DNA of 64,000 nucleotides, taken from assembly GCF_001447785.1 (NCBI RefSeq), contig NW_015160215.1, positions 1,045,616 to 1,109,615 on the forward strand, read 5' to 3'. Below the pieces are notes generated by a model that was not told the DNA's origin, made no database searches, and saw nothing but the letters and a program-made list of their open reading frames with translations. A program made the position numbers and the translations under genes. Below are positions 1,104 through 47,043 of this stretch, in pieces; the stretch's first letter is position 1; each line of letters begins with the position of its first letter. Origin of the DNA: Gekko japonicus (Eukaryota).

Positions 1104-1729
1104 ACTCCATTCTCTATCTCCGCGCACCTCTCTACAACCGAGATGAGCGACGGAGAGGAGAAACCAATTCCTGAGAATGACGACTCCGGGGGGGGGTCCC
1201 GACTCCTACAACGACTGGTCAGGGGACCCCCACGACCCAGTCGACGGTGCCAGTGACTACCACGCCGCCGGTAACTGCAGCTGACGGAGCCGTTCCTAAG
1301 ACGACATCGACCCTGGTGTTTCTGACCCCGACGGGGCCGAGGCGGCTGCCCGGCCATGGATATCGGCCAAACTCCAGCTGGAGCCAGTTTCACCCAGACT
1401 CTACTGCCGAGACTTATATGCTCATGCAGGGGCCACCGAGAGACAGCCGATTCGACTGGGGGTTTTCTGGGGCCGGGGGGTTCCCCCCCTTTAGGGAACC
1501 ATTCGAGTCTTTACCAGGGGCATGGGTGACAGAGAGGACGAAGGTGAAAAGTGGCCAGGTGTCCCCGGAGGAGGGATTGGAACTAGCCCAGCGGATGGAA
1601 GTGGCAGATCAGGAGAGACGGCAAATGCAGAGGACGCTGGAGGACGTCATCCAGGCGATCCCGCAGCTGGTAATCCAAGCCACCAGAGAGGAGAGGGAGG
1701 CCCGACCGGCGGTCCCCGCAGGGCCGGTT

Positions 1730-3396
1730 GCCATTTCCTGGGTTCTGCAAACTCTTTGGCTGACGCCTTGTCCCGCGTACCCCAACACAACAGCCAAGAA
1801 GATGTAGTCTTGGACTCAGTGTTCACATCCTCACAGCTGGGCAGGGCAGTGACAACTCGCAGCCAAGCCCGCCTAACTTCTCCTCCCTCTGTGATGTTGC
1901 ACCCGCCTCCTGCCAGGGTGCGGAAGGAGGTAACAGACACTTCTCCTCACTCTGTGATGTTGCACCCGCCTCCTGCTGGGGCAGGGAAGGAGGAAACAGA
2001 CACTTGGCACAGTAAATTCGCCTCCGCCCATTTGGAGGGGGATAAAGAAGTTCTTGAAGTGGAGGGGGATTTTGAAATGCAGGGCAATGGCTGTTGGTAC
2101 CGGGGACATAAGCTGTTCATTCCCCTCTCACTCAGGGGGGAGGTGTTACAGGCAGTGCATGGCTCTAAGCTGGCCGGACACTCGGGATTCATTAAATCCC
2201 TTAAATTACTCCAAAGGCAGTTTTGGTGGCCAAAAATGCGCAAGGATTTATCCTCATTTCTTCAGTCATGCCAAAGCCCGGGACTGTTACACCCACTTCC
2301 TAATCCGATTCGACCCTGGGAAGTTATCTCTATGGATTTTATAACTGACTTGCCCCCGAGCAAATCGATGACTCTGATTTGGGTGGTAGTGGATTTCTTT
2401 TCTAAGCAAGCACATTTCATTCCGTTCGCTTCACTACCCATGGTGAAAACTCTGGCAAAAGTGTTTCTCCTGCACGTGGTGAGGTTACACATGCTCCCTA
2501 CCAAGGTGGTCTCCGACCGGGGGACCCAGTTCGTCTCCCGGTTTTGGGAGGAGCTAATGAAACTGATGGGAGTGGAACGAGGCCTTAGCAGCGCTTACCA
2601 TCCAGAAACCGATGGCCAGACTGAAAGAGTTAATCAAACTTTGGAACACTATCTGCGTTGTTTTGCCAACTATCAACAGGACAATTGGAATGACTTGTTG
2701 CCCCTAGCCAAATTCTGTTATAATAATACTTGTCATTCTTCCACGGGGATTTCCCCGTTTAAGGTGCTGTATGGTTATGACAGCCCACCTGTCCCATTCC
2801 TGGAAGGGGACATGGACATGGGGCCGGGGGACACTGCTTAATGGTGTAAACAATTGCGGGACTCTTGGCCTCTACTGTGTAAGACTTTGACAGCTGCCAA
2901 AGAAGCATATAAGGTGCATGCTGATAAGAGAAAGGTGGAAGGTTGGGCTCTACAGCCTGGTGACTCTGTGTATGTTTCCACTAAAAATATCAAGATGTTA
3001 CGGCCAAGTCGGAAGTTGGGTTGGAAATACATTGGGCCGTTTAAAGTGAAAAATATCATTAGTGATGTTGCTGTGGATTTGGACTTGCCAAAGAATTTGA
3101 TAAAATTGCATTCTGTATTTCATTTCAGCCTACTGAAGAAAGATTCGAGTTCCAGCTCCTGGCATCCATCGAAACCGGTGCCCCCTCCTATCATGACTGA
3201 GGGCAAGGAACATTATGAGATATCTAAAATTTTAGACTCTAAGCTCAGACGGGGAAAGTTGATGTATGCGGTTGAGTGGGTGGATTTCGGACCCCAGCAC
3301 CTTGAATGGGTGGAAGTAGGGGATATTCGGGCCCCTGAACTGTTATGACAGTTCCATCGCGACTTCCCGGACAAACCGGGAGACCTTCCGGAATGA
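1730..3396 (+). pseudogene. pol: pol remnant: RNase H C-terminus, integrase, chromodomain
   Basis: NSLADALSR; GHSG..FWWPKM; ISMDFITDLP; SDRGTQF; HPETDGQTERVNQ; YIGPFKV; YEISKILDSK..YAVEW chromodomain; stops at 2839-2841 and 3346-3348. Confidence 0.92.
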
Positions 3397-13020: not shown

Positions 13021-13729
13021 CTTCATCCACCAGCTGCCTTGCCATAGCATGGCCACACCTCCCCAACTGGGTCCACATACTATGAGCCCCCATCTATGCT
13101 GGAGCCATCCTCAACCAGAGGCCTCCAAGTTTACACTGACCCACACAAGACTGCTTGCCTATATGTGAGGATAACCACTCCTCATGAGAGGCTTGAGTGG
13201 AGCATAAATGGCTCCAATTGCTCACTCACCTGGAAATGTCTGGGCTTCGGATGCAGATGTGCACTGTGGCACTTAAATTGCTACTGTCTGGCTTGTGGCT
13301 TCATTGTGGTTTTGTATGTTAGCTTCCTTGGTCCCTCTCACATCTCTGCCAGTCCAGGAAGGCCCAGAACTGCATCAGGCAGCCATCAGGGGGCAGGAAT
13401 TTCACTGGAACATGGAGTCTCCCTCCTGACCAAGCCAGGGTAGCCAGGTAAGTGCAGGGGAGAGGAGATGTCACACCCAGAGAGTACATGTGTCTGAAGA
13501 GAGCTTATGCTAGAATAACCTTTTTACTCATTAAGAAGCCACTGGACTTCTCATTTATTTTACCACCTAGATTAGTTATCAGCTGTGGAAAATATCTGCA
13601 GCTCAACACATGTTTCCAGAGATCTGAAAGCATATTCTGGAGATGAGGTCCCTCTTCCTCCAACGCAAGTGCCATCACTAAGGCCATGGAGGGGGGGTAG
13701 CAGCAAAGCATCCTTTGACCATCCATGGA

Positions 13730-14868
13730 TTTATTTCATTTTATTTATATCCTGCCCTCCCCCGCAAGCAGGCTCAGGGCAGGTCATAGGATGTCAGTTG
13801 AACACATAATATATTAAAACATTAAAAGATAGCAAACAACAAAGCAACAATAAATTGACCTATAAGAGCCAAGTTCCATCAGATCACAATGAGACAGCAA
13901 TTATTCAGACCGTTCATGATGCCACCTGGAAGATGCTAGATTGAATGGTAGTTAAGAGTAACCTATTTACTGGTAATGCTCTGTTGACCTGTAAGTGGGC
14001 AAGTCACAACGGGCACTATAAGCACTGCAAAGTAGCACAAACCATGCAAGCAGTGCAAGCAGGAGAAGCCAAGATGAATCAGATGTCCACCACCTAAACA
14101 AAAGTCCTGGCAGAATAACTCCATTTTACAGTCCCTGCTGTACAGCTTCATTTTACAAGCCCTGACCCTTGTTGAGGCTAGATGTACATCTTTTGGGCCA
14201 GGAACTACCAGAAGGTGTTGCTCAGCTGAGTGTAAAGCTCTTTGGGTCACATATGACAAGCGTCGGTCCCATAAGTATGTTGGTCCCTGGCCATGTGGAG
14301 CTTTAAAGGTCATTACCATAACCTTGAACTGTATTCGGTACTCAATTGGCAGCCAGTGCAATTGACACAACACCAGGTGACTGCACGCTTGCACAAATGC
14401 TGCCGTCAGTAGCTGTGCTGTCACATTTTGTACTAGCTGCAGTTGCTGGATCAGGTTCAAGCGCAGCTCTGTGTCAAGCAAGTTATAGTAATCCAACCTG
14501 GAAGTGACCATTGCATGGATCACTGTAGCCAAATCCCGGGAGGTGAGGTAGGGAACCAATTGCCTGACCTGTTATAGATGGTAAAAGACTGATCTGGCAA
14601 CAGTGGTGACTTGGGCCTCCATGGAGAATGAGACATCCAGGATCATCCCTAGGCTCCTCACTCTTGGCGCTGACATCAACGGTGCCCCACCAAGGGTTGG
14701 GAGACATATTCCCAATCCCAGACCCCCATGATTCAGCCCAACCCCCCAGACTAGCTGGATGAGAAGGCACATATAGATGTTAAACAACATAAGTGAGAGG
14801 ATCATCTTTTGCAGTACACTGCACTCCAGTGGGTATTGCAGCAGAATCCTCTCCCCAAGTGCCACCCT
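13730..14868 (-). mobile_element. L2 LINE, 3' half
   Basis: VIHAMVTSRLDYYN, LQLVQN, LHWLPIEYRIQFKV; L2-type tail near 13730. Confidence 0.9.
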
Positions 14869-14930
14869 CAGGGCCGTAGCTAACAACTTTTTGCTCAGGG
14901 GGCCCAATTTTTGCTCAGGGGGCCCACCAC

Positions 14931-15882
14931 CAATGTTCCCTCTAAGCTGTGGAGTTTTGTGAGCAAAATTTCTACTTTGTGAGCTACTGCCATTAAAGTT
15001 GTGAGAGAGCAATTTGGCTGCCGCATAAATTAGGGGAGCCGATGATCGAGCCTGCCAAGAGGTAGATTACAGTGGGACACAACACAACCACTTGCTCTCA
15101 CAGTGGGCAGCAATCCAGCTCAGAGGTTCACCTTGCCATTAGTTTAGCAACTTTTGATGCCTCAGATTGGGTGTGTACATGCACACACACTACTAAAAAG
15201 CCTGCATGGAGAAACAACCTCCAGTGGGCCAAAGAAGAGGGTTCCTTTAGACATTGCACATTGGAAATGCCAGATCTCCTTGGGTTCTTTTTCAATGGTA
15301 GGTGCAGATGCCACAGAACGTTATGGAATTCACTTCAGATGTGCATATTATCTGCAGCTTCTGAGGGAGAAATGACACACCCAAAGCCATACGACACCAG
15401 AGATAATTTGGAAAAGGATAATAGAGGCAGCAGCAAGGTCCATGTTATTAAGGAGTCCTGCCAGCCCAGATGAACTCAGAAAAGACACCTTAATTGCACA
15501 AAGAGTGCAGCTTCCCAAGGAGACCCATCCCGATGCTACAAATGCTCTGTGGCCATTTTCCCCTTCACAAACCTCAATTCCACACAAACCCATCCCTGGA
15601 CCTTGAACTTCCAGCACGCAGCACCTTAAGAGACCACCCTTCAAAGCAGCCATTTTCTCCAGGGGAACGTATGTCTGCAATACTCCCTCTAAACTGCAAA
15701 GTCTTGTGAGCAAAAATTCTACTTTGTGAGCTACTGGCATTAAAGTTGCGAGCGAGTGATTTGGCTGCTGCACAAATTCGCTTGCTCTGGAGCCATCCTC
15801 CTTGAGCTAAGGCAAAAATGTGTGAGCCAGATGTTTAAAAACTGTGAGCCAGTTCACACTAACTCAGTTTAGAGGGAACTCT
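14931..15882. mobile_element. Nested MITE of the 'TGTTCCCTCTAAGCTG' family
   Basis: Inverted ends AATGTTCCCTCTAAGCTG / CAGTTTAGAGGGAACTCTG; related ends at about 21055-21116 and 33263-33465. Confidence 0.65.
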
Positions 15883-17497
15883 GGATCAGCTGGCAATCCA
15901 GGGGATATCTAGGCTCCTCCTGAAATCTTACTTCATTGGGCCCAAGCTTTCCCAATCAAGTGTAGACCCTTGCAAACTTTCTTTTCCCAGCCTGCCCTAT
16001 CCTAACTCTCTTCTCCCCCATCTGTGGGTTTCCCCGTTGTCCAGGCCACCCACCCTTAATTGCAACATGCCGTCAGGGGTCATTTCGTAGAAAAAGAGCT
16101 AGGGGAACTCATTAGCATAACTCATTAGCATATGCCACACCCCGACATCACTGGAAGTGTGTCATAAGACCACACCCCCTGACATCACCGGAAGTGTGTC
16201 ATAAGGCCACACCCCCTGTTGCCTGTGTAAAAGAAGCTATCCCACTGATCATGTGCAGAATCTCTTACTCACCAGTGAATAAGCATGGTCAAGTTCCTGT
16301 CTTCATCCCCCCTGCACCCTCCAAATCTCCCATATGGATAAAATGACAGAAAAAGCATAACAATAAGGGGGGAGGGGGGAGGGGGAAGACTCATCCTGGC
16401 GGCTTCCAGCGACGTGGGGAGTCCTGGCTGTGACGTGGAGAGGGGGAAGGGGGAGGTGGGGAGGACTCGTGGGGAGGGGGGAAGGGAAGGACTCGTCCTG
16501 ACCCCAAGCACCGAGGATGACCCAGCAACGTGGGGAGGTGGGACTTCGCCAGGGCAGACAAACAGAAGAGCCTCCTCGGGCAGCGTGAGCCCGAGGCAGC
16601 AGGCGAAACTGCTCAGGATCACGAGAAAGCCGTGAATCTCATAGCCAGGAGCCCCAGGAGAGCTCCCAACGCTGAAGTTTGGAAGACGTCGAGGCACCAG
16701 CAACCCAGGCGTTGCAGACCAGCCTAAGTACAAAAGGTGGAGCAACTGCCAGTCGCTCCAATNNNNNNNNNNNNNNNNNNNNNNNNNNNNNNNNNNNNNN
16801 NNNNNNNNNNNNNNNNNNNNNNNNNNNNNNNNNNNNNNNNNNNNNNNNNNNNNNNNNNNNNNNNNNNNNNNNNNNNNNNNNNNNNNNNNNNNNNNNNNNN
16901 NNNNNNNNNNNNNNNNNNNNNNNNNNNNNNNNNNNNNNNNNNNNNNNNNNNNNNNNNNNNNNNNNNNNNNNNNNNNNNNNNNNNNNNNNNNNNNNNNNNN
17001 NNNNNNNNNNNNNNNNNNNNNNNNNNNNNNNNNNNNNNNNNNNNNNNNNNNNNNNNNNNNNNNNNNNNNNNNNNNNNNNNNNNNNNNNNNNNNNNNNNNN
17101 NNNNNNNNAAAAAGGGATTGACGTGCCATGGGATCAAAAGGGTGGGGGGGGGGGGGGAAGCATAAATATGGCATGCACAGAAGTTATTACATGGATTTTG
17201 TTTCATGCATATCTTTGAACAGCCAGAGCTCAGTTTGATGACAGGGGCTGAGATCGTTATTGACAGCGAGGGGAACAGTCTCTTCTCAATCCCAAAAATA
17301 AACAGAAGCAGGGAGTGATTTTGAGAGTTCACACTCTCAGAAACTGAAATAGTGCCGGTAGCCGGGATAGCCGGCTCCTCAAGCAAGTCTTAAGCATTTG
17401 CACCAGACGTGATCTTATAGTCTGACCATCCCAGGGCGAGATGGAAGGGATCATCTGGCTCTCTTTGACCACCAGCCATTCCCTGCCGTATCCCTAC

Positions 17498-17763
17498 CTG
17501 TCGCGAAGGTCTCCTTTGCGGAGCCCCATCCAGGTCACTTCGGCCCGCTGCACAGACACCCCCCGGCAGGACTTGACCGGGCAGATGAAGAGCTCCGACA
17601 CCGACCCCACCTGCACCAGCTCTCCACGAGCCCGCCGTCGACGCCAGGCCGCGGCGGCCCCCAAGGCCACACCCCCGACAGCAGCGAGGGCGCAAAGCCA
17701 GGCGAACTGCGCCTGGCGCAAGAGAGGCAGCGCACATGGGGAAACGCCAGCGGACCCAGCCAT
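17498..17763 (-). CDS. MTARC: Exon 1 of a mitochondrial amidoxime-reducing component (MTARC1/2, MOSC); no further exons seen in the window
   Basis: ATG at 17763; N-terminal hydrophobic anchor plus RRRR; VGSVSELFICPVKSCRGV..MGLRKGDLRDR; phase-2 donor AG|GTAGG at 17497; CpG-rich. Confidence 0.9.
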
Positions 17764-18424
17764 GGTCCGAAGACACCGTGCGGGCCACCGACCTCCCTCT
17801 CTCTCCCTGACACTTTTACAGCCAGGCGGGGAGGGGGAGAGAGGCCTCTTTCAGTGCAGCCCCCCTCTGGCCCCGAGACGCCACAGGAACATCCCCAGGA
17901 CGCTACCGTTGCTCTTTCTTTCCTTGGCTCCAAGCACAGGCTGGGCACACCTCCCCCCCCACACACCCCTCGCATCTCAGACGCATTCCCAAAATAACAC
18001 AAGGGGCCTCTCTCCTGAAACCTGAAAGACTNNNNNNNNNNNNNNNNNNNNNNNNNNNNNNNNNNNNNNNNNNNNNNNNNNNNNNNNNNNNNNNNNNNNN
18101 NNNNNNNNNNNNNNNNNNNNNNNNNNNNNNNNNNNNNNNNNNNNNNNNNNNNNNNNNNNNNNNNNNNNNNNNNNNNNNNNNNNNNNNNNNNNNNNNNNNN
18201 NNNNNNNNNNNNNNNNNNNNNNNNNNNNNNNNNNNNNNNNNNNNNNNNNNNNNNNNNNNNNNNNNNNNNNNNNGAGCCGCTCCCGGGACGCCCCAGCAGC
18301 CTGCGGGATGCCGGAGGCAGCAGCAGCGGCGATGATGGGCGGGGGGGAGGGGAGCAGAGGGAGGGGGCCCGCACGCCCAGCAGGGGGGCCGGGCCCCATG
18401 GGCCCCACTCGGGCTACGGGCCTG

Positions 18425-19372
18425 GCCACCCTCTGTTCCTGACCATGGAGAAAGGAGGAAAGCCATTGTAAGCGATCCCCCGTATCCCTATGTCAGTGAG
18501 GCAGTGGGTCAGAAGATCATAATCAACCATGTTGAATACTGCTGTAAGATCAAGAAGCAACACCAGCACCAACCTGCCCCGATCCAGGTGTCTCCAGAGG
18601 TCATCTGTGAGAGTGACTAACACAGTCTCTGTCCCACAGCCAGGGCAGAAACCAGACTGGAATGGGTCCAGGATAGAGGTATCATCCAAGAAAACCTGGA
18701 GCCATTCAGCCACCGCTCTCTCAACTACCTTGCCCAGGAATGGAAGGTTCGATACTGGGCAGTATTCATACTATGTTTGTATTGTATGCTGGTCTTAAGA
18801 CCGTAATAATAAAACTAAACTGCTGGACAGTAATGAGCAAGGACTGCAGAGTACAGTGATAGGTTTTTTTCAAGAGCAGACACACCACTGCCTCTTTCAG
18901 ACCCAATGGAAATATCCCTAAAGACAGGGATAGATTGATTATATTCCCCAGTGGGGCCCAAACACCATCTTCACATGCCTTGACCAGCCAAGATGGGCAC
19001 CAATCAAAGAGGCAAGTGGTGGGCTTTACAGCTGACAAGATCTTGTCAACTTCCCCCTGGGAGAGTCAGCTGAAGTGGTCCAAACCTGGACCAGAAGACA
19101 GACAAGGGTTCCCTTACTGTATTAATTGTGGCAGGGAAGTCCTGGCAGAGTGACAAGACTTTTTCTTCAAAAAAGCTCACAAATACCTCACAGCCAATTC
19201 ATTATAATTTTGTTTGCCCTCTGGCAAAAATGTTAAAGACCAAATTGTCCTAAATAATTGGGCCAGGCAAGAGCTAGCAGACACAATGGAGGTCACCTAC
19301 AAATTCTTAGCAGCCTTCACTGCTACCTTATAGGCTTTCATAAACATCCTATAAGATGTTCTTATAGCTTTT
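18425..19372 (-). mobile_element. L2 LINE, 5' half (RT)
   Basis: IINLSLSLGIFP..KEAVV; LDPFQSGFCPGCGTETVL; LLDLTAVFNMVD. Confidence 0.9.
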
Positions 19373-19459
19373 TCAGGGCCGTGCCATCACCCTCGCTGCA
19401 GTCATATGAGTTGTCGCTTCATGCTCCATAGCTCTGGGGTGTACCATGGAGCTAGTTTG

Positions 19460-19716
19460 AACATAAGAACATAAGAACATAAGAGATGCCAATGTTGGAT
19501 CAGGCCAAAGGCCCATCCAGTCCAACACTCTGTATCCCACAGTGGCCAGAAATACCAGTGCCATCAGGAGGTCCACCAGTGGGGCCAGGACATTAGAAGC
19601 CCTCCCACTGTTGACCCCCCCCCCCAAGCACCAAGATGACAGAGCATCACTTGCCCCAGAGTCCCTATCTATACCTTGTGGCTAATAGCCACTGATGGAC
19701 CTCTGCTCCATATGCT
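19460..19716 (-). mobile_element. CR1 3' end with (TTCTTATG)n tail, fused to the PDCD5 retrocopy
   Basis: Reverse complement of the 3' part of the CR1 copy at about 22700-22950. Confidence 0.9.
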
Positions 19717-19854
19717 AAAAAATTTGTTTTCCCTTTCTGTAAAAAAAAAGTGTACAGAAAAACCGTGTAAACATTCCATTTATGGTTCGGTCAGGACAGA
19801 ATACTTTCCTCGACATCTTCCAGATGATTTGCAGTCGGCAACCACCTTTCTATC

Positions 19855-20244
19855 TCAGTCGTCCTCTTCCTCATCGGAATCCAATACTTTTCTTCTGTTG
19901 AACTTTACTGTTGTTTTCTTTTCGGTTTGCTGAGTCACTTTTTCAAGTATTTCTATCAATCCTTGATCTGATACCTTCCCACTTAACTGTCCAAACCTTG
20001 CCATCTGTATGAGATAATTCTCAACTGCTTTCGCCTTTTCCGGCTTTACAAGTGCTAAATTACTTAATCTGGCATGAGCTGCCTGATCCAAAACCTGAGC
20101 CAAGATGTTATTCCTCATTTCCACCTCCCTCTGCTTTGCTTCTTGTTGTACAACTTCACCAGAGGGATCCCTGTGCTTGGCCTGCAGCTCGGCCAACCTC
20201 TGCTTGCGCGGCGCCTCCAGCTCCTCCAGCTCCTCGTCCGCCAT
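19855..20244 (-). pseudogene. PDCD5: PDCD5 processed retrocopy, intronless, ORF still open (129 aa)
   Basis: [74 protein letters not shown]; UTR-like flanks out to about 19717 and 20294. Confidence 0.95.
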
Positions 20245-20751
20245 CGTCGCGCCAAGTCCAGGGACCGCGGAGGGGAGCGAGAGAGGCCGCCGAGAGTTTG
20301 GTACAAGAGTGAAGGTCAGTGGGCATGGAGGATGGGGTTACCTCCTTCTGGGGCACATAGAATTGGACTCCCTGGTCCAATCTTTTTTAAACTTAGGAAG
20401 GTTTTTGAGGAGAGGCACCAGCAGCTATGTTGAGAAATTGGTGACTCTACCTAAAAAACCACAGCCCTCAGAGCCCCAAATACCCTCAGATCAATTCTCC
20501 ATTATAGCCTATGGGGCCTATTGACTATAATGGAGCAGGAAAAAATTGATATGTTTTTGCACAACCCTATTGTGTTTTTCAGTATGGTTTGTAAGCTGCC
20601 TTGAGTCACAGATAAAAGTGGGGTATAAATATTTGATAATAAGTATTTTGGGCCGGTTGATAACTTCTGACACCAATTTCTGACAATCATTCCTCTTCTG
20701 TTATACTTGACCTGTAATGCTGGTTCTCATATTTCACTGCAAGAACCCCCC

Positions 20752-24456: not shown

Positions 24457-25843
24457 TTTTCATAAAGTGTCTGTACAGGAGCAAGCAGCCAGGTCTAGTT
24501 GAGTCATGCACGTCAGGTGGTATCAAGTCACCCAGAGGTTGCTGCCAGGCCTAGAGTTTCCATCCTCCAGGTGGGATCTGGAGATTTCCTAGAATTACAA
24601 CTGAACTTCAGACAACAGAGACCAGCTCCCCTGGAGACAATGGCTGCTTTGGAAGGTGGACTCTGTGGCATTATATCCAGTTGAGGCCTCTCTGCTCCCC
24701 AAAACCTGCCCTCCTCAGAATCCATCACAAAATTGCCAGGAATTTCCAACATCTTGCTAGCAGCCCTAGTCAGGCCTGGCCCCAATGAATTGTCCCTCAA
24801 TAGTCAAAACAGCCCTGAAAAGGACCCTGCCCCCTCCCCTTGCCTTTTTACTCACATAAACCCATCCTGGAGTACTGTGGTTGTTTAACAACAGCCAGTG
24901 AGATAATCCGTGGTTTAAAGCTACAGGAACTCCTTTTATCATTTTTGCATTTTTAAGGGGCCCCCTCCATGATTTTTTTTAGATTTCACATGTTTCTGCA
25001 AACCTGAGTCCCTTTTCAGATTTGCAGAAAGATCTGTCTTGCCCATCCACAGCTCCAGTCACTGAATTCAAGTATCCAAAGATTTGGCCGATATATAGAT
25101 ATAGATATATGGAACAATGTAGGGCCCTAATGTATCATCTCTTCTTTAGCAACAGGTATCCTAGGGATGTTTCTAAAATTGGAAGGCATTGGACCAATCC
25201 TAGACAGATGCAACTGAAAGCAATAGAAGGTGGCATTGACATTTGAAATGCATACCTTCAGGTTTGATTGGTTTTGATTGACCATTTTCTTGCCTCATTT
25301 GGTCTGTCTGGTTGGTTTAGGCTTAAATATATACAAAGATCACCTTCTGTTAAATGGAATGCATAAAAACAAAAAACAGAACACTTTAGCACTGTTCATG
25401 TTACAGTTAATGCATAGACAACCTACATGAATATACATACATCTATTTGTAAGAAAGAGCCAATGAGTGTTCACTTTACAAGTAACATCAGGAACCAGTG
25501 TCTGGATAAATGCAGGGTTTTAATCTCATGTTTAGCTGTACATGCATTGAAAGTAATGCATAAATTACTTAGCACATGTATACAGAACAATCAGGTATAC
25601 AATATGCACAGATTGTACATATGTTCACTTTAAATTGTGAACAGGGCTACAAAGTTTAATGTTTGCTTACCTTAACATTGTGAATGGATACAAAGTTTTT
25701 AACATTTTTTTTCAAACAGGGCTGCTAGAAAGCACATCATTTAGATATTTAGATAGTCCTATATTTCTGCATACTATTTGATGGTTAATATTTGCCACAT
25801 TTGTACCGCAGATACAGGCCCAGCTTTAGTCATATCAGTGCAT

Positions 25844-26270
25844 GAATACAAAAGTATCTGCAGTATCTTCTTCATGTACAAGGACCGAAGGGTCAGGGAT
25901 CTTACTATGGATGGTCAATGAGAAGCAGGATAAACTATGGCAGCATGATAGCCAATACAATATTTGTATTGTGTAGCCAATACAAACTATCAGTACCCGA
26001 ATACAAAAGTATCTGCACCATCTTCTTCATGTACAAGGACTGAAAGGCCAGGGATCTTGCTATGGATGGTCAATGAGAAGCAGGATAAACTACGGCAGCA
26101 TGATAGCCAATAAAATATTTGTATTGTATAGCCAATACAAACTATCAGTACCTGAATACAAAAGTATCTGCACCATCTTCTTCATGTACAAGGACTGAAG
26201 GGGCACAGTTCTTACTATGGATGGTCAGTGAGAAGCCAGTGAGATAGACTATGGCAGCATGATATCCAAA
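25844..26270. repeat. 155-bp tandem repeat, about 2.8 copies
   Basis: GAATACAAAAGTATCTGCA starts at 25844, 25999 and 26154. Confidence 0.95.
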
Positions 26271-32557: not shown

Positions 32558-32870
32558 TAGGGTTGCCAAGTGCTTTTTGAGCTGCAGCGGGGGACTCCCG
32601 GCAGGCGGCTGGAGTGCACGCACGTCACCCGGAAGTGACGTGACGATGCCGGGCACGCTGAGGCGGGGCCACGGCCATCCGTGGGAAAACCATAAAGTTT
32701 TCCCTCAGATGACCGTGGCCCCGCCCCCAGCATGCCCGGCGTGGTCGCATCCCTTCCGGGTGACGTGCACATCGGGGTGGGGTTCCCCCCGGGGCCCGAT
32801 CTGCCAGCAGTGGTGAACGGGGCTCTGGGGTGGGGGTTTCCCTGCCCCCCGGGGGGACTTGACAAGCCTA
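32558..32870. mobile_element. CpG-rich hAT MITE
   Basis: TAGGGTTGCCAAG / CTTGACAAGCCTA; TSD ATTCAGTC/ATTCAATC. Confidence 0.8.
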
Positions 32871-35286
32871 ATTCAATCTCAGCTGCCTCTATCTCATGGC
32901 CTCCAGTTCCTCAGTCATAGTAGATGGGGCGGAGTCCATCCATTCATCCACCCATCAACAGACACAGCTGTTATCCCTCCGCACATTGATTAAATGCATG
33001 GAAAGGGAGAGTAGGCATCAGTGCAGTGTCCCCACCTTATGTGTTCGCATCACTGCTGGAGCATGACACCTATGTGTGGAGGAAGTATCTACAACTATGC
33101 TCCCTCCCATGATAGGAAAGATTCAGAATGCAGCATCTCCTATCATGGGGAGAGAGCACGGACACTTCCTCCACATGTTTACATCATGCAGATGACCCAA
33201 CAATCACCTGGTGGTAAGGAGGCTCATGTTCCTCCTATGGATTCAGTCAGCACATAGAGACAGCAGTGTTCCCTCTAAGCTGAGTTAGTGTGAGCTAGCT
33301 CACAGTTTTTTAGCCTCCAGATCACACATTTTTGTCTTAGCTCAGGAAGGATGGCTCAAGAGCACACTAATTTATGCAGCAGCCAAATTGCTTGCTCACA
33401 ATTTTAATGTGAGTAAGCTCACAAAGAAGATTTTTTGCTCACAGGACTCCACAGCTTAGAGGGGTCATGAGTAGAGGTCAGGAGTAGAGAATTAATCTGG
33501 CAAATAACTGGTCTTGTTTATAACAGTTATAAAACAGACCACAAGCTGAATCAATGGTTGATCAAGTATCCCCATTAGGAATATCAACATTGTTAAAGGA
33601 ATTCGACATCATCTAGAAATCGGTTGTGCGAAGATAGTGGAAGACACCTTGAGAACAACAACAACAAAATCCCTGAATACTGAATTTACTTGCAAATCAT
33701 AATTATCATTATTTCAACAGTGAGAATACATAGGATAAGAAGAAAGGATATTCATCATGGAGACTTTAAGGATACCAGGTGCTTGTTTATTAAAGTTAGT
33801 TTCTTACATTTATGATAGCTAACTCAATAAATAGGGGGTGATGTTCAAGAATATGGTACACCTGCAAATCCCAGCATCATCTCATGGGGAGCTGTGCACA
33901 TCATTTGAGATAATTAAGCCTTCCAAAACTTAGATTTTCTGTTACAGCATGCAGTTGTTTTGAATTCCTTCATATTTGCAGGTGATTCCAGCTACTAGTT
34001 AGTTATATGTCCCAACAAAAAAAGTTAAGCATCAAAACAAATGTTTACAAATCTTTATTTCATTCTCAATCCCTTCAATTGTAGGATGAAGGAATTGTGG
34101 ATAAAATGAAAACATATCAATAAAACAATAAATATTAAAATTATTTTAAAAACATATGCAATAAATCTAGCAACAGTTTCCAGCCACCCCACATCATCAT
34201 TTGAAAACAACAGTTTCAGAATAATATAATTCATAGAGAACTGGACATGAGAGTTGATAAGAGATCCCAATACAAGAGATCCCTAGCTTCAATAATCAAA
34301 GCACATGGAAGATAGTTTCCATTGGTCCAGGTGCACAAGAACAATTTCTTTCAATCCATTTAAGCCTTCCTGTGTATTTGGCTGTTAGGAGGGAATTAAA
34401 TTTTGCCAAAAGAATCAAATGTCTGTTTTTGGATTTTTTTTTTTTAGTAACCAATTAATTAGCAACTGTAAAGGAAGTTGTAGGGATAGCCATAACACAA
34501 AGGAGAGCACTTCCTGTATGAATCACTAAGTAACCAATCAAATCATGTGATAAAATTGCTCCTGCTATTGTTTTCAATAGGTGATCAGAGTAATAATTCA
34601 ATAGATTATCATCTAACGAAAATCCCGGTTCACACAATTTGTCACTTGATAATAAAAATTAGCACTTGATGATAAAAATAAGTCTTGCCTCATTAGATAT
34701 ATTAGTTGACTCAGGGGGGTTCTAATAGGAATATTTCAACCACAACTTAATGGCATATTTCCTTGTGATTGATTGTAAGGAGTACAGTCCAATTTCTAAT
34801 CAAATTACTGAGTTGGTGACACAATTGGGAATTCCCAAGATGGTTTGGAAGAAGCTAGTTTGCAGCCTCTCAAGATCTTTAGTAATCACATGTTGCCATA
34901 ATGGTAATCCATATATGGCTGCAGGTAAGATCTTGAAATTGTATAATTTGAGCAATGCTGGAAAAGACTGTCCACCTTTTGTAAAACAATATTTCTTCAA
35001 GGTTATGGACAAAAGCTGAAAGCTATTTATGATACGTTTTAGATTACTTTCCCTTGATTCACCACAAATGTAATGATCATTTTGTAACTGTTTTCATTCA
35101 TGCTTTACTAAGTACTGTTTTGTTTTTTATTTCAATATTCAATAAATAGTTTAAAATTTTAAAAAGCTACTTATGATATGTTTTAGATGACTTTGACATG
35201 TCATTAGAGTGTCAAAATGGATGCCCAGATATTTGTAAGAATTAACTTGTTCAAACTCCATTCCTTGCAACTCCCAAGGACACCCT

Positions 35287-37175: not shown

Positions 37176-40100
37176 TTTGTCCCCCCAGTCGGAATAAAGA
37201 GACAGACACCAGTATGGATTTAACAAAGGCCACTTTATTAATTATTTAATAACAACAAATATTAGCAAGGGGTTGTCAGAAATGTACTGGGGAATATGAC
37301 AGGTGTCAAGCTCCTCCTGACCACCTTCATTTCCTTCTGGGCGATGCACCTGCTTCGATTGCAAGCCACCGAAGGTAGCTTTTTGACCAGCAGCTTGGCA
37401 TGTTCAAAAGAACCCCTGACCCACCACCACAGAAGTCGCAAAGGCCCGCTAAGGTAGGCCGGACCAGATTGTTTCAAGTATGATCACCCCTTCCCAGTCT
37501 TGAGCTGCAAAGGCCCGAAAGCCATTCCTGGAGGACTCTTTATTTCCTTTATTACAATGCCCCAGTGCTCACCATTTCCATCCTGATCGCGCTACCCAAG
37601 CCTCTGCTTAGGCCTTGGCCCCCACCATGCAATCCAGTGCCACCAGGACACCTCACCTTAGATCTGAAAGAAAAATGTTGTTGCCCTTGTTAGAAAGGTG
37701 CACCTCATCCCTCCTATACAGGTCAGGGAACTCGACCCATATATCAGGGTGCAACAGAAAGATGCCCAAACCACCCTCCATGGTGTTCTTAAGCTGCCGG
37801 TTGGCATTCCGCCTCGCCCGGTCCAAACACCTAGGATCTCCTAGGCTGCACCACACCTGCTGACAGGACCAGTTGCACCCCAGGCCAATGGTCCACAATG
37901 CCAGCCAAATCCACCTTGGCCTGAATGACTAGGGCCTTACCTTTCATGAAACCCAAGTCATTACCACCAAGGTGTATCAGGAGGACATCAGGCGGAGGAC
38001 CACGTCTATCCCCAAACAGTAGCGGCATCAACTTAGGCCAGTGCATGCCTCTTCGGCCGAACCACTCGACCTCTGCCCGCTCACTGCATCCCAACTGGGA
38101 TACGATGGTCATTCTCTTGGCACAGTGCGTGGCCCAGAACACCATACTGTGGCCACAGATAAGCACCCGGCTCCTCTGATGGCCACCAACAGCACCTGAA
38201 ACAGAAACTAGATTAACCATAACAAGACAAGAGCACTAGGCTCAAAAACTGCATGCTCCATTCCTGTTATAACAAAACTGAATGAGCAGCTCAGACTTTG
38301 CAGGTCCGCACATACGTCTTATAACCTGCTGACCTCCACCTGCCGATTCTTTGAATATCAGGTCCCTGGGAGGGCTTTAATGTCTTGGCCCCACTGGTGG
38401 ACCTCCTGATGGCACCTGGTATTTTTGGCCACTGTGTGACAGTGTCGGACTAGATGGGCCTTTGGCCTGATCCAACATTGACATCTCTTATGTTCTGATA
38501 TCCCATAGCTGCAGCAGTGGAAGCCGCCCCAATTCTGAAAGAGTGAGTACCAAATTGGAAATTACCAAGGCTCAAAGCAACCAGAGCCCTCTTGGTAATT
38601 GACCAAAATTGAAACCTGGTCAAGGGCAATCCATCTTTGTGCATAAACAGGAGACCTGCACTACTTCCCCTCAATGCCAAATATGAAGTAAGTGACACAA
38701 CCGGACACAGGTTGGACTCAAAACAAGGGCCCACTGAAATCATAAAATCTTAGAATGCCTAACTGTAATTTGTCGGCAATCCTCACTTACCTGGACATCC
38801 CCTATGCCTAACGCATAGCCCGACTTCTCCTGTCAGGATCGAGCCACCAGCTCACTGATTCTCAGGACCCCAAAGAATGCAACCAAGGCAGCCACATGGA
38901 ACAAGGCAGCCTCGTATGCATCTGTACATAAGGAAACCCATTGGGGTTTCAATCCCTTAAGTACAGGGGGGAAAGGTTCCCTTGTGTCCCAAGGAGCACC
39001 ATTCCCTTGGGCCCAGCCATCCAGCATTTTCCGAATACGGAAATCCCCAGTGTCATCCCTGAAACCCCTGGCCTTACTTGCAAAGGCAAGGGCTGATAGC
39101 TTGCCCCAGATGGAATGGACAGACAGACCCTTACCTTTCACAGACACGCAGAATTGGATCAGATGTGACACTGGGATAGGCCAGAGCTGCTGAAGGCCTA
39201 CTTCCTGTCTAAAAGCCACAAACTGTTGGTCGGCCCACAGATAAGCCCAGCATGTGCTGGGTGAAAGAGCTAAGCCCATTGTCCTCTCAGCTTCAGCCCT
39301 CCAATCTGCCACAGGCCTTCAGGCATTCTTACCGCTACTAGGTCAGAGTCCGGAGCCAACTGATGAAACCTCTCCATCTGTTTCTGAGACAGAGCATCAG
39401 CGACCCCATTACTGGTACTCCTGGCACGTGCCTGGCCTTAAACAATATATTATAGTGCAAGCATTGGAGGGCAAAAGCCCGGACAAGCACCATTACCCTG
39501 GGGGACCTAGACGTTAGGGAGTTGATGACCTGTACTGTTGCCATGTTATCACACCAAAAGTGAACTGTCTGGCTAGCCAGGTCATCAGCCCAGATGTACG
39601 CAGCTACCACTATGGGAAAAAAACTCCAAAAATGTCAGGTTCCGCATCCTCCCAGCATGAATCCACTCAGATGGCCAGTCCTCAGCAAACTAGTGAACAC
39701 CAAAGCCCGAAGAGCCTGCTGCATCAGAGGTGACCTGCAGTCCAGCCTCAAGTTGGAGATCATTCCTCCAAAAGGACACCCCATTATATGAGGTCAAGAA
39801 CTCCCGCCAAACTAACAGGTCATCTCTAATTCCTTGGGTAACCCTGGTCCTATGATGTGGACATTTTAAGCCTATCGTCAAGTCGCACAGTCTGCGCAGG
39901 AAATGCTCTCCCTGGGGCCACCACTCTACATGCAAAATTAAGGTACCCAATAAGCTGTTGCAACTCCTTGAGTGTCAATTTAGTTTTGGTACATGCTTCC
40001 TCCACTAACCGAAAAAGGTTAGCCAATTTATCAGAAGACAGGTGTGAAACCTGCTGCACAGTGTCCAACTCAATGCCTAGAAAAGTTAAGACCTCACTAG

Positions 40101-41535
40101 GGCCTTCCGTTTTCTCAACGGCTAATGGAACTCCAAGTTTGCTCAAAAATGGACAATAACTGTGCGCAAATTCCAGATCCAGCAGGGCCGACAAATAAAA
40201 AATCATCCAAATAATGGGCAGTACTGAACAAGCCTGTGTGTGCACGCAAAGCCCATTCCAAAAAGGAGCTGAACCTTTCAAATGCAGTGCAAGACACAAA
40301 GCATCCCATTGGGAGGGCCCTGTCTATCAAAGGAGAAACCCAGAAGGACAAAGTCAGCTGGATGGTCCGGCAGAAGACAAAAGGCTGACATGATATCACA
40401 TTTAGCCAACTCGGCCTCTAGCCTGCAGCTATGGACCATACCAACCGCCTCATCAAAAGAAGTGTACCTAACTGAGCAGAGTTCACTAGGTATGGCATAA
40501 TTCACCGAGCTGCCATGAGGATAAGACAAATGGTGAATGAGGCAATACTCCCCAGGTGCCTTTTTTGGTATTACACCTAAGGGTGATACCCGCAGGTTAG
40601 GCACCGGAGGAAAGGAAAAAGGACCAACTACCCTGCCTTCCAAACATTATTTCAGAATCTTGGCTCTAACCACCTGCTCCATGCCCCACACTGAGGGCAA
40701 GTTAGGAGCTGAAAATGAACACCTCTCACCCACATAGGGAATGTGAAACCCAAACTTAAACCTGTACAACAAATACTGCCCATCGGCAAACTTTGGGTAA
40801 AGGCGCAACAAGCGCTCTAACACAGGAACTTTTGTCAGGTAAGGCCTGACCGCCCCCCTGACGTCTGCCACCCTTGCCACCCTTGCCTGCAGGCCTGGGT
40901 TTTGCTTTGGGGCAAGATGGAAAAGCATGGGGGCCGGCACAGAGGGGGCATTCATGCCAAAAGGAACAAGGTTTCCTACTGCAATTCCCATGTGAGGAAA
41001 ACTCATAACACAGGGAATGCCTTTGGATTACTTGGCCACCCGGGGAACGCAGAATTGCATAGGCCGCATTGGCCCTCTTCACAACATGCCCACTGTCTGA
41101 ATGCTCCCCAAGCGTAGGCCTGGCAGGGGACATCGTCTGCATCCAGATATGTGGATGGATTAGGTCCCAACGGAGTGCCGGGTACATAGCTGCCTTCATA
41201 CGGAAGGCCCTATCATATTCCATCCAGGCGGACCCGGCAAAATCCAAATAACCTTTATGGATTCTATCCCTATACTGAAGCAGCGATGAAGCCCTTTCTG
41301 GCCTTGCCCTAACAATCACCCCAGCATAAATTAAGAAGCCGAGGTACCAATTAGCATAGATTTTGTCTACGCTGCGGCGCTTCAAGGGCTCCTTATCCCG
41401 TTTGTCCAATTCTTCCCTATCCTTCTTATCCAATGCAGGGCTTTCTACTTCCAAGAAGTCTCCCTGTCGCCGAAGCTGCTGCTGCTGCCGAGCACACCAA
41501 AGGACTGGTAAAGTAGGGGGCAAGAGCCAGACCTA
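37176..41535 (-). mobile_element. Ngaro/DIRS retrotransposon (gag, RT/RNase H, tyrosine recombinase, SGNH hydrolase), 5'-truncated and frameshifted
   Basis: gag zinc finger CYEF..C..C.FWHECPLC..H; RT LIHHLSYP, HYLDDF; RNase H SDAAG, FWCDN; YR FFGVLRISEL, HSFRIGAA; SGNH ICGHSMV, HLGGND, DEVHLS. Confidence 0.93.
38369..38494 (+). mobile_element. Short CR1 3' end inserted in the Ngaro YR gene
   Basis: Matches about 22808-22940; YR frame GYQ|GPDIQRIGRW rejoins across it. Confidence 0.85.
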
Positions 41536-43635
41536 AACATAAATAAAGTTATCTATCTAATTGGATGATATTAATTTCTGGAGTCCATTTAAAGTTAAAT
41601 TTTGCTGTTAAATTCAGCAAACAGGTGCCAACAACATTAATGCCCCCTATGGAAAGTTATTCTACTGTTGCCCAGTTGAGAGAAGGCCAAGCCCTCTCCA
41701 AACCTAGATTTCAGAAAATCCACATTTCTGGCACCAAATCTCGCATTCATGAGAATAATCTGTGCTGTTGCATATCTGATAACCACATTTCCAACATATT
41801 TATCAAAAGCTAACCAGAATTTTGTAATAAGAACTAAAGTTTTTAAGCAAGGAACATACATATTAACTATCAAAAAAGTTCCACCTAATATCTTAACTAA
41901 GAGAGTTATTGCACTATTGTACAAAAACAAATCTGAATTATGTTTAAATTTAAATCCTTTATCACCCAGGTTTAAGGCTACCCTTTGGATGTCCTCTATT
42001 AGTCACACTACAAGAGACTTGTAGATTAAAAGTTTCAAAGCCATCTAGTTTAATTGGGGTTTTAGCCCAAGTCTCTTTTAAACAAATGATGTGGAAATCC
42101 TTCAACATTTCTATCACCTCTCAATCCCCTTCTTTACTGTGCCAACCATGAATATTCCATGACAATAATTTAATCATATCATTCCATAAGGGCATGTCTC
42201 ATTGTTTGCAAGTAATTTTATTTGTATCTGGATTGATAACAGCAACATTGGATCTGTGAACAGCAGGTTTAGACAAAATAACGTCCCCTTTTGAAGATAA
42301 GTGGGAACCAGTTGACAGTAACTTTCCCTCACTTGGTTGCTTATGAATTATTAGGGCAGATTCCTCTGTGATTGTGATTAGTTTTGGCCCAGTTGCTACA
42401 GGAACAGTTTGTTAATTTGCTCTTGTGGTATTGCTGTGTTTTGTGAGGAATATATAAGACCAATTAGGTCCATGGTTTCGAACACCTCTTGCGATTCTGA
42501 CTTCAGAGCAATTGTGTTATGCTCCATAGATGTTGTAAGATCATATTCATCAGCTGAAATGTGAGTTTTGTATTTTCAATTTTTGTAAGCATATCTTTCT
42601 GTTCTGCTCCACACAGAGCAGATTCACACAGCATTTCTTTGTCTGAATCTTCCTGGGGGATCTCCTTAGAACGAACAAGTAGATTATTAGAGTGAGCTGT
42701 CTTGGGCTCATTGCCCTCTTGTGCAAAAACATCTACTGATCTTGCTTCTTTCATCCCCTCTTTTTTCTAGACATTAGGGGATTGATGTTTTGATTCCTAA
42801 AAACCCTAGCAAGGTAAATACCATTAGAGCCTAACACATTAAAAGATTCAGAATCATAGAAGTTTTAAAATTAAGCATAACTCTCTGAGTTCAAAAAGTT
42901 TTCCTCAAAACTGTTTGATCTATCAGATTAATTCTGTTCATAGGTAATTGTAGTAATTTGGCCAGATGAGATTTAATCTGGTACCTAGGTCCCCAGACTG
43001 GAAGAATACCACTATAAGAAGTGATTAGTAGGTTGACCATATATGGCTAAACTGGAATGAATACTTATAGTCCTCAATGGAAAGTAGTATCAGTTTTGAT
43101 TCTAAGCCTGGAGATGAAAGATTTTTTCTTTGGTACCCCATTGTGCCTCCAGCTGCTCTCTGTTTTATACTAGTTTACATTTTGTGAGTTTTTAATTCCT
43201 GCTCTGAATGAATTTCCCCCAAAATTTCCTCCAATTTTACATAAATCTTGCTCACAGTATCTGGAATTAGCAGGGCCTGAGAAGCTAACAAGGCTAAAAC
43301 ACTATTCTCTTGTCCAGAAGAAATTTCATTTCCACCCAGATTATCCAGATGTTGCTCCCCTTGAAGAGAGTCACTTTAAAGTCTTGACATCTTGTATCTG
43401 TTCTTAGGAGGAATGTCATGGATGGAGGATTAACTCTTGAGACGTAACTATCCAGTCTTAATTGCTTAGGGGGAAGGTAGCTCGTAAATCAGAGTTTTCC
43501 TTAATCTCTTATTTGACGGCACCATTGTGTGTACTCTAGATATCTACAGAGATGCAGCTAGTGCCAGTCCTTCTCAGTGTTAACAACCAACAGCTGAGCA
43601 CTCAAAGATAGGAAACTAAATTGCGAAGATGTTCA

Positions 43636-43922: not shown

Positions 43923-46314
43923 CCGAGTTCTTTAGTTGTTTCACTCTTCTTTCACTCTTTAGTCCCACAGCTGACATATTATGAACAGGAGTGTAGCTGT
44001 TATCCCTAATAATTTGCCTTGTTTTAAAAGAAACTCCAGTTTGCTGCTTCTCACAAGCAATGTGTCAGGAGTCAGGAATCCTGGAGTTCAAAGGGAAGTC
44101 CAAACATTCCAGAATACTTCTTGTAGCCAAGGAAGCAGTCTGTAAACTGGATTTCAACAGTTATTCAAAAGCATAGGAAAAAAGAAAACTTTTCAAAAGC
44201 AAGGCAAGAGGAGCTTAACAGGAAGCGTCTGCTCAAGTGTCCATCTTGCCTCTCCCAAAGCAAATGTCTACAGTTTGAAACACGGCATTCTTGTTGTCCA
44301 ATTGTAACTTTTTCAATATGCTTTTGAATCCACTCCCTCCATGGCTCAGAATGGAATACTGGTGTCTTTGAGGCTTCTGTTCCTCCTTTCATTTCCCAGT
44401 AACACAATTTCAGTATAGCTATCATTTCTCTTGAAGCTCTTTCATACATTATTGCAATCCTGTCTGGATAAAAGTATTTCCAGACCTTTCGCTCATTGCA
44501 GACTTTCCAGGTGTTTAGTTCTTTCTTTCTCCTCTCTTCCCTGCCTACCCAAACTCCAAGATAATTTTTCATGTCATTACAGTTTTGCCCTGTTCAAATT
44601 TGGTTATTTTTACCTACCTGGTTCTGAGGCTATTAAGCAGTTTGCAGCCTGGATGTTTTGAAAGGGAAGTAATCAGTGTAATATGATGTCATTGAATACA
44701 GACACTCCAAAGTGAAAATTTCCAATTAACAATAGCCAATATTGTCCTATTTGGGAGTGAGGGTGGGGGGTGGAAACAGAGTCAAAGGTATTTTGTCAGA
44801 GAAAGATTTCTAAGTAGCATGGGGTCTCTTATTCTCAGCTGTCAAAATGTGAAGAAAGGGATTTACCAGTACGACTTCCAAATTGTTGTGAACTTGGTGA
44901 AACAAAATTACCACCCAGAGAGAGGGCAGCAAAGAAGACTGCTTTACATACAGAAAACTGGGGAAAGACTCAAATGCTAAATGGATGGACAAAAAGAGGC
45001 ACCAAGCAGAGAGGAATGAAGATATTTAATATGTCGTGGCTTCCGGTCTGGCTAAGATGGAGGACTGAAGCGTTTCGCGATCGTGCGAAGCGAGCGACGG
45101 CCACTTTTGACAGTTTGGGCAATACACAGCCCAACGCATCACTCCCCAGCGAGGGGGAGGGACAAGCAGGCAGCAGCGCCCTAGAGGGAGTGTGAGGTTG
45201 GCGTAATCCAGCTTCGGAAGAAGCTGAATTGGGCTTTGACCTCCTCCCACGAAGAAGGCAAGTGCCAAGCAACTCTATAGTGGCCGATCGAGCCGGATTA
45301 CCGGCATAAATTCTTCGTCAGCCGACCTCTTTGAAGAAGGACAACAACTGTGAGTTAAAAGAAACAATGCGAAACCCGTTTTGAACATGCTAGATAACAA
45401 AAACGTGCCGCTTACCTGAACTGAGTTTGGAGTCAATTTGAATTAAGCGGTTGAGCGGAAAATGAATAGTAAATCCCAGAAATCCGATTCCGGAGAGAAA
45501 AAAGTTGATTGAAGCCTTTAAAAACTGTAAAAACGCTTATTGTTTAACATTCCTGTGGTGAAGATGGAGCCGTGTGCGCAACTGTAAAATCGAAACTCAC
45601 GAACAATAGCGTGGGAAGAGCAGGCTGGTGTCACAAAGAAAGAGGTCCGTGTGAAACATCCAGGAAGTTGAATTCCTAGACGGGCATTAGCGAAAGGAAG
45701 ACAGTGGAACTTTTAAAGGTGCCGGACCGGAAGTGAGTTTTATGCGGAAGGAAGGGCCTGCAAAATACCAATCTGACCTACTCTACATGAAATTACCATA
45801 GAGAAGTTGCGCCCGACATTTTGAGGAGGACTTCAACTAAATTTGCTTTTTTAATATATTTCTAAGGGTCTTTGGAAAGCGTAAACAGAGAGGCATGGAG
45901 GACTAAATCTTATCATCTAGAAGAGTGCTTTATTTTGCGAATCTGTGAATTGGAAAGAAATCGCCAAGACGGAGACCAGGAGAGGCAAGAAAAGAGCCGA
46001 CTCAGACCCAGAACTTAAACCGGTTGTGAGACCTAGGATTGGATCTACTTCAACCCCCAAAATGTCAAGAATCAGCCCTTACATTTGAGAACATCTGCAT
46101 AGCGACTGAGGCAAACCCAAGATTTATACTATGGTTCATGTGTGTCCAGAGCAACAGAGATGGTGCCAAAAGTGCCCCCAAAATGTTACCATTATTCATA
46201 AAGATTATTTCCTGGTTTAGTCTCTTGTGAAGTGAACATGGCTGGAGATGTGTGTCACATACACATTTTACAGGAAACTAATTCCATACATAATTCCCTT
46301 TTTCTTGCGTCATT

Positions 46315-47043
46315 GTGCCTTTTTCCTACAAAAGGACTAGTTGTCACGAAGTCCAAGAGAAGAACATAACAGCATTGAAGGAATTGGTTACTACAGAAAT
46401 AACTTCAATCAAGCAAGAAATGGAAGGAGTTAAGAAGGATGTTCAAGCAAATGCAACCAAGACTACAGAGACAGAGGAGAAGATACAAAAAATAGAAGAG
46501 AAACAAGATTCTTTGACTCAACAAATTACAAGATCAGAGACAATGATGGAGTTCAGAAGGATGCAGACTCATCTGAGATTCAGAGGCATTAAGGAAACAG
46601 AGAATGAGAACTTAAAAGAAAAAATGATGGAAGTGATAACGGCTTTTCTGGGCGAGGAGGAAGGGTCAATGGACTCAGACTTTGATTTGATTTATAGAGT
46701 GAACTCCAGAATTGCAGAAAAGAAGAATTTACCAAGGGATGTAATTGTACAATTTGTAACAAGATCAATAACAGAGGAGATATTCAAGAAGCAATTCAAC
46801 GTCCCTTTTGTAATAGAGGGAAACAAAATTATGGTGATGAGAGAACTCCCAAGAACAATACTGCAAGACAGGAAAAGGTATAAATCCTTGGCGGACAAAC
46901 TCAGAGCTTTGAGCATCAGATATAGATGGGAGATTCCACAAGGTTTATCCTTTACGTATCAAGGTGGGAGGATTCAGATCAGATCGATGATGGACTTTTA
47001 TAAATTTAAGGCGGACAATGCGGACGTCTTTGGAGAACTTTAA
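46315..47043 (+). CDS. L1 ORF1 (coiled coil, RRM, CTD); N-terminus apparently disrupted
   Basis: HLRFRGIKE, YRVNSR..LPRDVIVQF, YRWEIPQG. Confidence 0.85.
   Translation: MPFSYKRTSCHEVQEKNITALKELVTTEITSIKQEMEGVKKDVQANATKTTETEEKIQKIEEKQDSLTQQITRSETMMEFRRMQTHLRFRGIKETENENLKEKMMEVITAFLGEEEGSMDSDFDLIYRVNSRIAEKKNLPRDVIVQFVTRSITEEIFKKQFNVPFVIEGNKIMVMRELPRTILQDRKRYKSLADKLRALSIRYRWEIPQGLSFTYQGGRIQIRSMMDFYKFKADNADVFGEL

Follow-up and report, generated by a model that had tools for sequence, protein, structure and literature searches.

A probable Pack-type hAT element with a mosaic interior and a diverged copy of the MTARC first exon in Gekko japonicus

Gene capture by DNA transposons is known in animals and has been little described in reptiles. 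The survey of animal Pack-TIRs, elements named for their terminal inverted repeats (TIRs), reports 370 cases, 208 of them hAT and only 4 multicopy, with a cargo that is 13.4% exonic and has a median length of 224 bp (Tan et al., 2021; PMC8277862). Lizards were found there in a single row, for anoCar2, which gives 0 Pack-TIRs, and 12 of the supplement files hold no gecko term (PMC8277862). In Anolis carolinensis the non-autonomous hobo_AC hATs take up genomic DNA (Novick et al.; PMC3014272), and in rice those Pack-MULE copies that are not expressed are heavily CG-methylated (PMC5861414). Our literature search, mostly outside subscription journals, found no report of gene-fragment capture by a gecko DNA transposon. 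Here we analyse a stretch of 64,000 nucleotides from Gekko japonicus (contig NW_015160215.1; hereafter the window, meaning that whole stretch), in which a first-pass annotation, made from the letters alone, had placed the first exon of MTARC, which encodes a mitochondrial enzyme, inside a hAT transposon and had offered either exon capture or a scaffolding artefact as the explanation. We consider it probable that the unit is a mosaic Pack-type hAT carrying a decaying, diverged copy of the MTARC first exon together with its upstream region and the start of its intron. Of the two options offered, capture is favoured by the existence of a separate native MTARC contig and by amplified cargo in the gap-free half of the unit.

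The outer boundaries of the unit are read directly from the letters. Its TIRs, CAGGGCCGTAGC and CAGGCCCGTAGC, match at 11 of 12 bases and are flanked by a perfect 8-bp target site duplication (TSD; 8/8). A strict scan, asking for an 8/8 TSD and a TIR pair of at least 11/12, returned only this one pair in the 64-kb window, and such a pair arose in 2 of 100 dinucleotide-resampled control windows. The unit interrupts a long interspersed nuclear element (LINE), the right arm of which aligns with positions 11–98 of Pfam RVT_1 over 18433–18770 (E 1.9e-6; 28.2 bits, slightly below the cut-off of 29.6); the left arm by itself has no Pfam match. Removal of one TSD restores an unbroken LINE frame across the junction, with QRVA joined to LGER. 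The earlier account of a LINE split within its reverse transcriptase (RT) by a 3.56-kb TIR/TSD unit is thereby borne out in its structure, and its label for the LINE, L2 as opposed to another LINE clade, is one that we presume. An Rfam search of 13500–20500 gave no match. At 3.56 kb, with an interior of ~3.5 kb, one TIR pair and one TSD, the unit lies inside the 100–5000 bp range of Pack-TIRs, and the start of its left TIR, CAGGG, though not that of the right, agrees with the YARNG start that serves as a criterion for hAT elements (PMC3014272). No transposase was matched by Pfam in the nine interior frames scanned, and the 588 bp of assembly gaps are too short to hold one. On sequence grounds, the unit is likely to be a non-autonomous hAT element.

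The exon frame within the unit matches MOSC_N (E 2.4e-7) and human mARC1 (E 2e-10), and is 93% identical to a G. japonicus mARC1-like protein. The start of MOSC_N after a hydrophobic N-terminus and the orthology to gecko mARC1-like identify it as mARC exon 1, and a GT splice donor directly ends it. We thus recover the content described in the first-pass annotation, namely MTARC exon 1 with ATG, donor, upstream sequence and intron start, and likewise its CpG-rich flank, where the observed/expected CpG ratio peaks at 0.86 (17601–17800). A tblastn search of the 64-kb window with three full-length proteins found no other MTARC exon (next best E 0.19), in agreement with the earlier statement that none follows downstream, and no exon-only relatives of 48–156 aa were found in the protein search. 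Compared with the G. japonicus protein P0002, whose complete 334-aa gene sits on a 1.77-Mb record, the residue changes are R10C, P19Q, A31G, R51Q, Y61C and R78W. The tyrosine at position 61 is present in 7/7 gecko homologues and in human mARC1, and the window reads ICPVKS for IYPVKS, as had been noticed. At 17109–17147, beside a poly-G run, the letters differ from those of relatives in a way that resembles sequencing slippage, and this stretch is probably a low-quality contig edge.

The exon contig (17109–18031) does lie between N gaps, of 346 and 242 N, and in its simplest form the artefact proposed earlier would be the sole native exon misplaced here. Contigs of public sequencing runs, X1 to X6, were compared with the window at 80% likeness; in the search by sequence words, no public run shares half of the words of the exon contig, and none recorded as RNA was listed, which carries no information about expression. 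In the DNA run X3, from organism A, the LINE flank 14508–14860 differs at 3/353 positions (~99% identical), the longer contig standing at single-copy depth, so organism A is the species of the window or very near it. Three MTARC contigs cover the exon in X3. Two are paralogues whose match is confined to the exon (23 differences in 125–173 nt), and the third, of native type, supplies the native MTARC sequence that the first-pass annotation had asked to be located: it is 2542 nt long with a depth of 70.6, spans 17148–18031 of the window, differs at 34 of 874 aligned letters (~96% identity) and extends 1423 nt further on the intron side and 208 nt further on the upstream side. It provides what the Pack-TIR definition asks of a parent, a unique best match of at least 90% identity that is not itself a transposable element (TE), with the qualification that it comes from another sample and not from the window's own assembly. 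The divergence of the cargo in X3, 3.3–3.9%, exceeds the 0.85% of the flank (Fisher p 0.003, or 0.016 without five C-tract differences; one flank only), so that the distance from cargo to native is about four times that from the flank to its counterpart.

The counts that follow rest on the 29 of the 34 differences that were listed. Eleven of these fall in the exon, 6 of them changing an amino acid, and at 6/6 of the differing codons the X3 letters yield the P0002 residue. Organisms A and B (the latter represented by run X2) share 12 of the 29 against the window, together with two 3-nt indels and the upstream deletion, which lies just upstream of the ATG and is seen against the natives of both organisms (65 letters for 10 in X3, 78 for 31 in X4; ~50 nt). 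Window-type letters, including derived ones at 17218 and 17860, are found in low-depth fragments of X1 and X6, which come from two studies, so the window-type variant is real DNA. These comparisons make it most likely that the window exon is a diverged duplicate rather than the native exon misplaced, and the simple artefact is disfavoured both by the distinct native contig with its annotated residues and by the amplified host-like cargo already present in the gap-free part of the unit. The 1423 nt on the intron side of the native contig have no long piece on window 14300–16762 among the matches listed; since its extra sequence gives no long listed piece on the gap flanks, both capture junctions would lie within the gaps or at their edges.

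These geckos have at least three MTARC paralogues (17491–17669; runs X1, X6, X3 and X2), and two of them occur as exon-joined contigs in X1 and X6, which are presumed to be RNA. As to splicing, the contigs that cover the exon in these two runs, two in each, are the two paralogues; neither the native orthologue nor the copy has cover there, and neither was seen spliced. In organism B, MTARC intron 1 bears an independent insertion at 17214–17218 with CAGGG-type inverted ends and apparently an 8-bp duplication, as judged from loose ends.

From the left TSD to 16762 the unit is read without a gap, and its interior is composite, with no fewer than seven pieces (Table 1) and not the MTARC cargo alone. 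Modules 1–3 lie physically inside the TIRs; the placement of the MTARC cargo is unbridged. For copy numbers, the depth of each contig was set against that of the native MTARC contig; the ratios are rough. By this measure module 1 has ~29–41 copies in organism A, 98–99% identical to the window, and ~1–2 in organism B, where it runs on into 587 and 428 other letters, that is, into other flanks. Modules 1 and 3, at about one copy in organism B and multicopy in organism A, show that this lineage has amplified host-like DNA of single-copy origin and that such DNA lies inside the TIRs; this conclusion is independent of the gaps. The inner part of the right end reaches ~170–210 copies in organism A with zero cover in organism B (bin sums, rough). 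Modules 1–3 gave no protein or RNA family match, including the protein searches with module 1 and the Pfam search with module 3. Pieces of module 1 are present in run X1 at depth 4–9. Among the repeat pieces, 14931–15033 matches 15678–15778 at 85% and a copy at 33367–33463 at 88%, and the 40-bp scrap presumably resembles a short interspersed nuclear element. In a relaxed scan for TIRs with TSDs, none of the inner TIR ends had a TSD of its own inside the unit. Simple nesting of intact MITEs (miniature inverted-repeat transposable elements) was rejected, because that scan gave no nested element with its own TSD.

The age of the insertion can be approached through a further contig of X3 (record 10), which matches 14598–14860 with 2 differences (99.2%) at a depth of 67.9 (single-copy), leaves the window exactly at 14860 and continues for 92 letters unlike the window from 14861 onward. 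Joints are placed leftmost, so an empty site would end exactly at 14860, and the orientation of the record was checked on loose-end lengths. Judged from where the piece ends, it appears to be the non-insertion (empty-site) allele. If this is correct, we have a young insertion that is still polymorphic and an MTARC cargo several times its age, and capture took place earlier and elsewhere. The apparent non-insertion allele and the fourfold greater distance of the cargo together argue for recent transposition of the whole unit. We suggest that cargo may have been captured stepwise at another locus, through template switching while a broken or excised element was being repaired, and that the assembled unit was later moved as one piece, by hAT transposase acting in trans, into an old LINE. 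Methylation and decay would then have left the copy as a silent pseudo-exon and not as a functional gene.

A different order of events can be envisaged, the single-copy Pack-TIR route, in which a short hAT MITE inserted first and then received its contents at the site, through gap repair templated by an older element that already bore cargo; the 3.56-kb unit would never have jumped whole. Gap filling is the origin of most animal Pack-TIRs (PMC8277862), the outer family makes up only 62 bp at the left end, and the three inner TIR ends are orphans that lack TSDs. Filling in place nevertheless predicts a cargo-free MITE allele at the site, whereas the sole other allele seen is without the left end altogether, and it predicts a nearby parent, whereas there is no MTARC parent in the 64 kb. 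We regard it as very improbable and retain transposition of the assembled unit as the preferred scheme.

The copy itself bears marks of decay. Three of the six exon residue changes are arginine losses of CpG type, and 5 of the 10 C/G-to-T/A transitions hit CpG where a share of 0.18 would be expected (p 0.023, post hoc), a pattern of CpG losses which suggests a CpG island turned methylated. Radical changes at conserved residues, together with the CpG decay, suggest relaxed selection on the exon copy, as the first-pass annotation had hinted. The MTARC copy is probably decaying, with a small biological effect of its own. We discounted faster mutation confined to the copy, since the differences fall on both branches.

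Several observations weigh against the capture of MTARC as we have set it out. The right TIR begins CAGGC, off the YARNG start at base 5, which is the sole TIR mismatch. The dN/dS ratio (nonsynonymous to synonymous rates) is 0.46 overall, and the window branch, with 5 nonsynonymous and 3 synonymous changes, is not distinguishable from neutral or constrained (p 0.69), so this part of the case for relaxed selection is not significant. The empty-site call was made with no view of the 92 letters of the X3 record. Neither gap is bridged by any read or contig, and the two flanks of the exon contig, at ~4–7 and ~170–210 copies, are multicopy, where scaffolders err. As to other hAT copies with the same cargo, which the first-pass annotation had proposed to look for, depth implies many copies of modules 1–3, and no second MTARC-carrying copy was seen. 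X3 and X5 have modules 1–3 but lack any MTARC contig of window type, where fixation of a 4%-old copy might have been expected; contigs prove presence, not absence. The gaps, the multicopy flanks and the contigs of X3 and X5 would suit a real diverged duplicate located elsewhere, either in a different cargo-bearing element or in a segmental duplication of small size, whose contig was scaffolded here through its multicopy flanks, so that the hAT at this site is without MTARC. We think this unlikely. Both gaps are short and adjoin G-rich or 80%-GC sequence, in which short-read coverage falls, and a stray copy of a first exon requires a carrier, while the element here demonstrably holds cargo.

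The distribution of the differences bears on a second alternative, that the exon contig is a deeply diverged allele of native MTARC exon 1, perhaps introgressed and perhaps null, which was assembled apart and misplaced. About 10 listed differences outside the C-tract are not found in organism B and could have arisen on the native side, a pattern that also fits two alleles; set beside the 12 that organisms A and B share against the window, they leave the differences about even per side. X1 and X6 show window-type fragments only and none of X3 type, with the bias that these runs were picked by window words, and X3 and X5 show the other type only. Against an allele stand the excess of divergence over the flank (p 0.003–0.016, one flank only), Y61C, the CpG-type arginine losses and the upstream deletion; the native neighbours, moreover, are unlike the gap flanks and so offer no obvious source of false links. 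Such an allele seems to us quite unlikely, and a diverged copy captured within the hAT is the reading we prefer. The native-type MTARC of X5 is broken into three contigs that leave 340 letters unaligned at 17256 and 1282 at 17772, possibly sample-specific insertions, which also tells against our reading; the X5 native locus was left out of structural inference.

Beyond the unit, an intronless open PDCD5-like frame on the minus strand at 19858–20277 (Pfam dsDNA_bind, E 4.9e-32) is probably a retrocopy, and is situated on the upstream, not the downstream, side of the captured exon; its exact sequence had no match in the protein collection searched. At 46294–50806 on the plus strand, an element that we take to be L1-like has an ORF1-like frame and an unbroken ORF2-like open reading frame (ORF) of 1272 codons, and is possibly young. 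Broken retroelement frames at 1181–3345 (plus strand) and ~37650–41550 (minus strand) are, from their translations, presumably Gypsy-like and DIRS-like, respectively. A 155-bp tandem repeat occupies 25833–26269 (2.8 copies, 90% matches). Of the other short TIR elements in the window, that at 54393–55426 includes a gap of 716 N, and a fourth hit of the relaxed scan, 44174–46328, is probably due to chance.

Table 1. Features of the hAT unit, its host LINE and related elements; positions are those of the window.
Feature	Position	Strand	Remarks
Host LINE, 3′ arm, decayed RT frame continued	13966–14860	-	left limit approximate
TSD, left (GCCACCCT)	14861–14868	+	matches right copy 8/8
Outer element, left end	14869–14930	+	TIR 14869–14880; 62 bp of outer family
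Second TIR element (CAATG-type), left end, very abundant	14931–15033	+	no TSD of its own; very high depth
Cargo module 1, host-like	15049–15614	.	from contig depths and unaligned flanks
40-bp scrap of abundant repeat	15629–15668	+	loose ends on both sides in 4/4 runs; more copies in window
CAATG-type element, body and right TIR, left TIR missing	15678–15883	+	83.5% to 33264–33463; inverted repeat with 14930–14949
Cargo module 2	15918–16074	.	~8–11 copies in organism A, 99–100% identical; contigs continue into next repeat
Third TIR element (CAGGGG-type), left end	16075–16217	+	complete 313-bp relative with 8-bp TSD at 61241–61553
Cargo module 3, GC-rich	16302–16762	.	~4–7 copies in organism A, ~1 in organism B (partly bin sums, rough)
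Assembly gap, 346 N	16763–17108	.	putative intron-side capture junction within
MTARC intron 1 start (copy)	17109–17496	-	native contig aligns from 17148 on
MTARC exon 1 copy	17763–17497	-	89 codons, ATG; hydrophobic N-terminal anchor region and MOSC_N start
MTARC upstream/5′ region (copy)	17764–18031	-	~47–55 nt gone at 17773–17782
Assembly gap, 242 N	18032–18273	.	putative promoter-side junction within
Outer element, right end, GC-rich	18274–18424	+	TIR 18413–18424
TSD, right (GCCACCCT)	18425–18432	+	same letters as left copy
Host LINE, 5′ arm, RT start	18433–19065	-	right limit approximate
Further short TIR elements with 8-bp duplications (0–1 mismatch)	32558–32870, 54393–55426, 61241–61553		relaxed TIR+TSD scan

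A captured first exon with an anchor and a splice donor is raw material for exon shuffling. The nested cargo, at ~30–40, 8–11, 4–7 and perhaps 1 copies, forms a dated series for testing stepwise capture. As a tentative and rather doubtful extension, geckos, and perhaps squamates broadly, may hold active, still polymorphic mosaic Pack-hATs in which cargo is built up in modules, with a preference for CpG-island promoters and first exons. On that view the copy would serve as a mobile cassette that carries a promoter, an ATG, a mitochondrial anchor and a splice donor, and could add the anchor to an exon downstream of a new insertion; the preference would parallel, in a vertebrate, the bias of plant Pack-MULEs towards GC-rich sequence.

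How, then, does the unit compare with the systems described so far? It resembles the multicopy Pack-TIRs, such as Pack-hAT-N8_XT with the CAPSL 5′ untranslated region and fly Ssk-FB4, in that a TIR element with a TSD surrounds the duplicate of a 5′ gene fragment; carriers there are most often hAT, the parent is distant and capture precedes transposition (PMC8277862). In contrast to the Pack-TIRs, the gecko interior mixes several donors with three other TIR ends, and its cargo of 0.9–1.5 kb, set against a median of 224 bp, contains an entire coding first exon, ATG and donor included (PMC8277862). The Pack-TIR length filter asks for an interior of 80–120% of one parental copy, whereas MTARC accounts for ~0.9 of 3.5 kb and the rest has other donors; because the mosaic interior falls outside this one-parent filter, we class the element as a variant acting in the manner of a Pack-TIR. 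As for the multicopy criterion, the same cargo between different TSDs, many copies of modules 1–3 are implied by depth, with the ends of those copies unseen. The hobo_AC elements are likewise lizard hATs, of 1.3–3.4 kb, with an 8-bp TSD, genomic DNA and TE scraps, and recombination between elements; unlike that of the gecko unit, their filler is TE-containing, and 'exon' and 'gene fragment' appear 0 times in the main text of that paper; the likeness drawn here is one of description (PMC3014272). The rice Pack-MULEs belong to another superfamily, number in the thousands and are in many cases expressed, whereas the gecko unit has short TIRs and an 8-bp TSD and is known from sequence; they share with it the duplication of GC-rich gene pieces, in rice from open, lowly methylated parents (PMC5861414).

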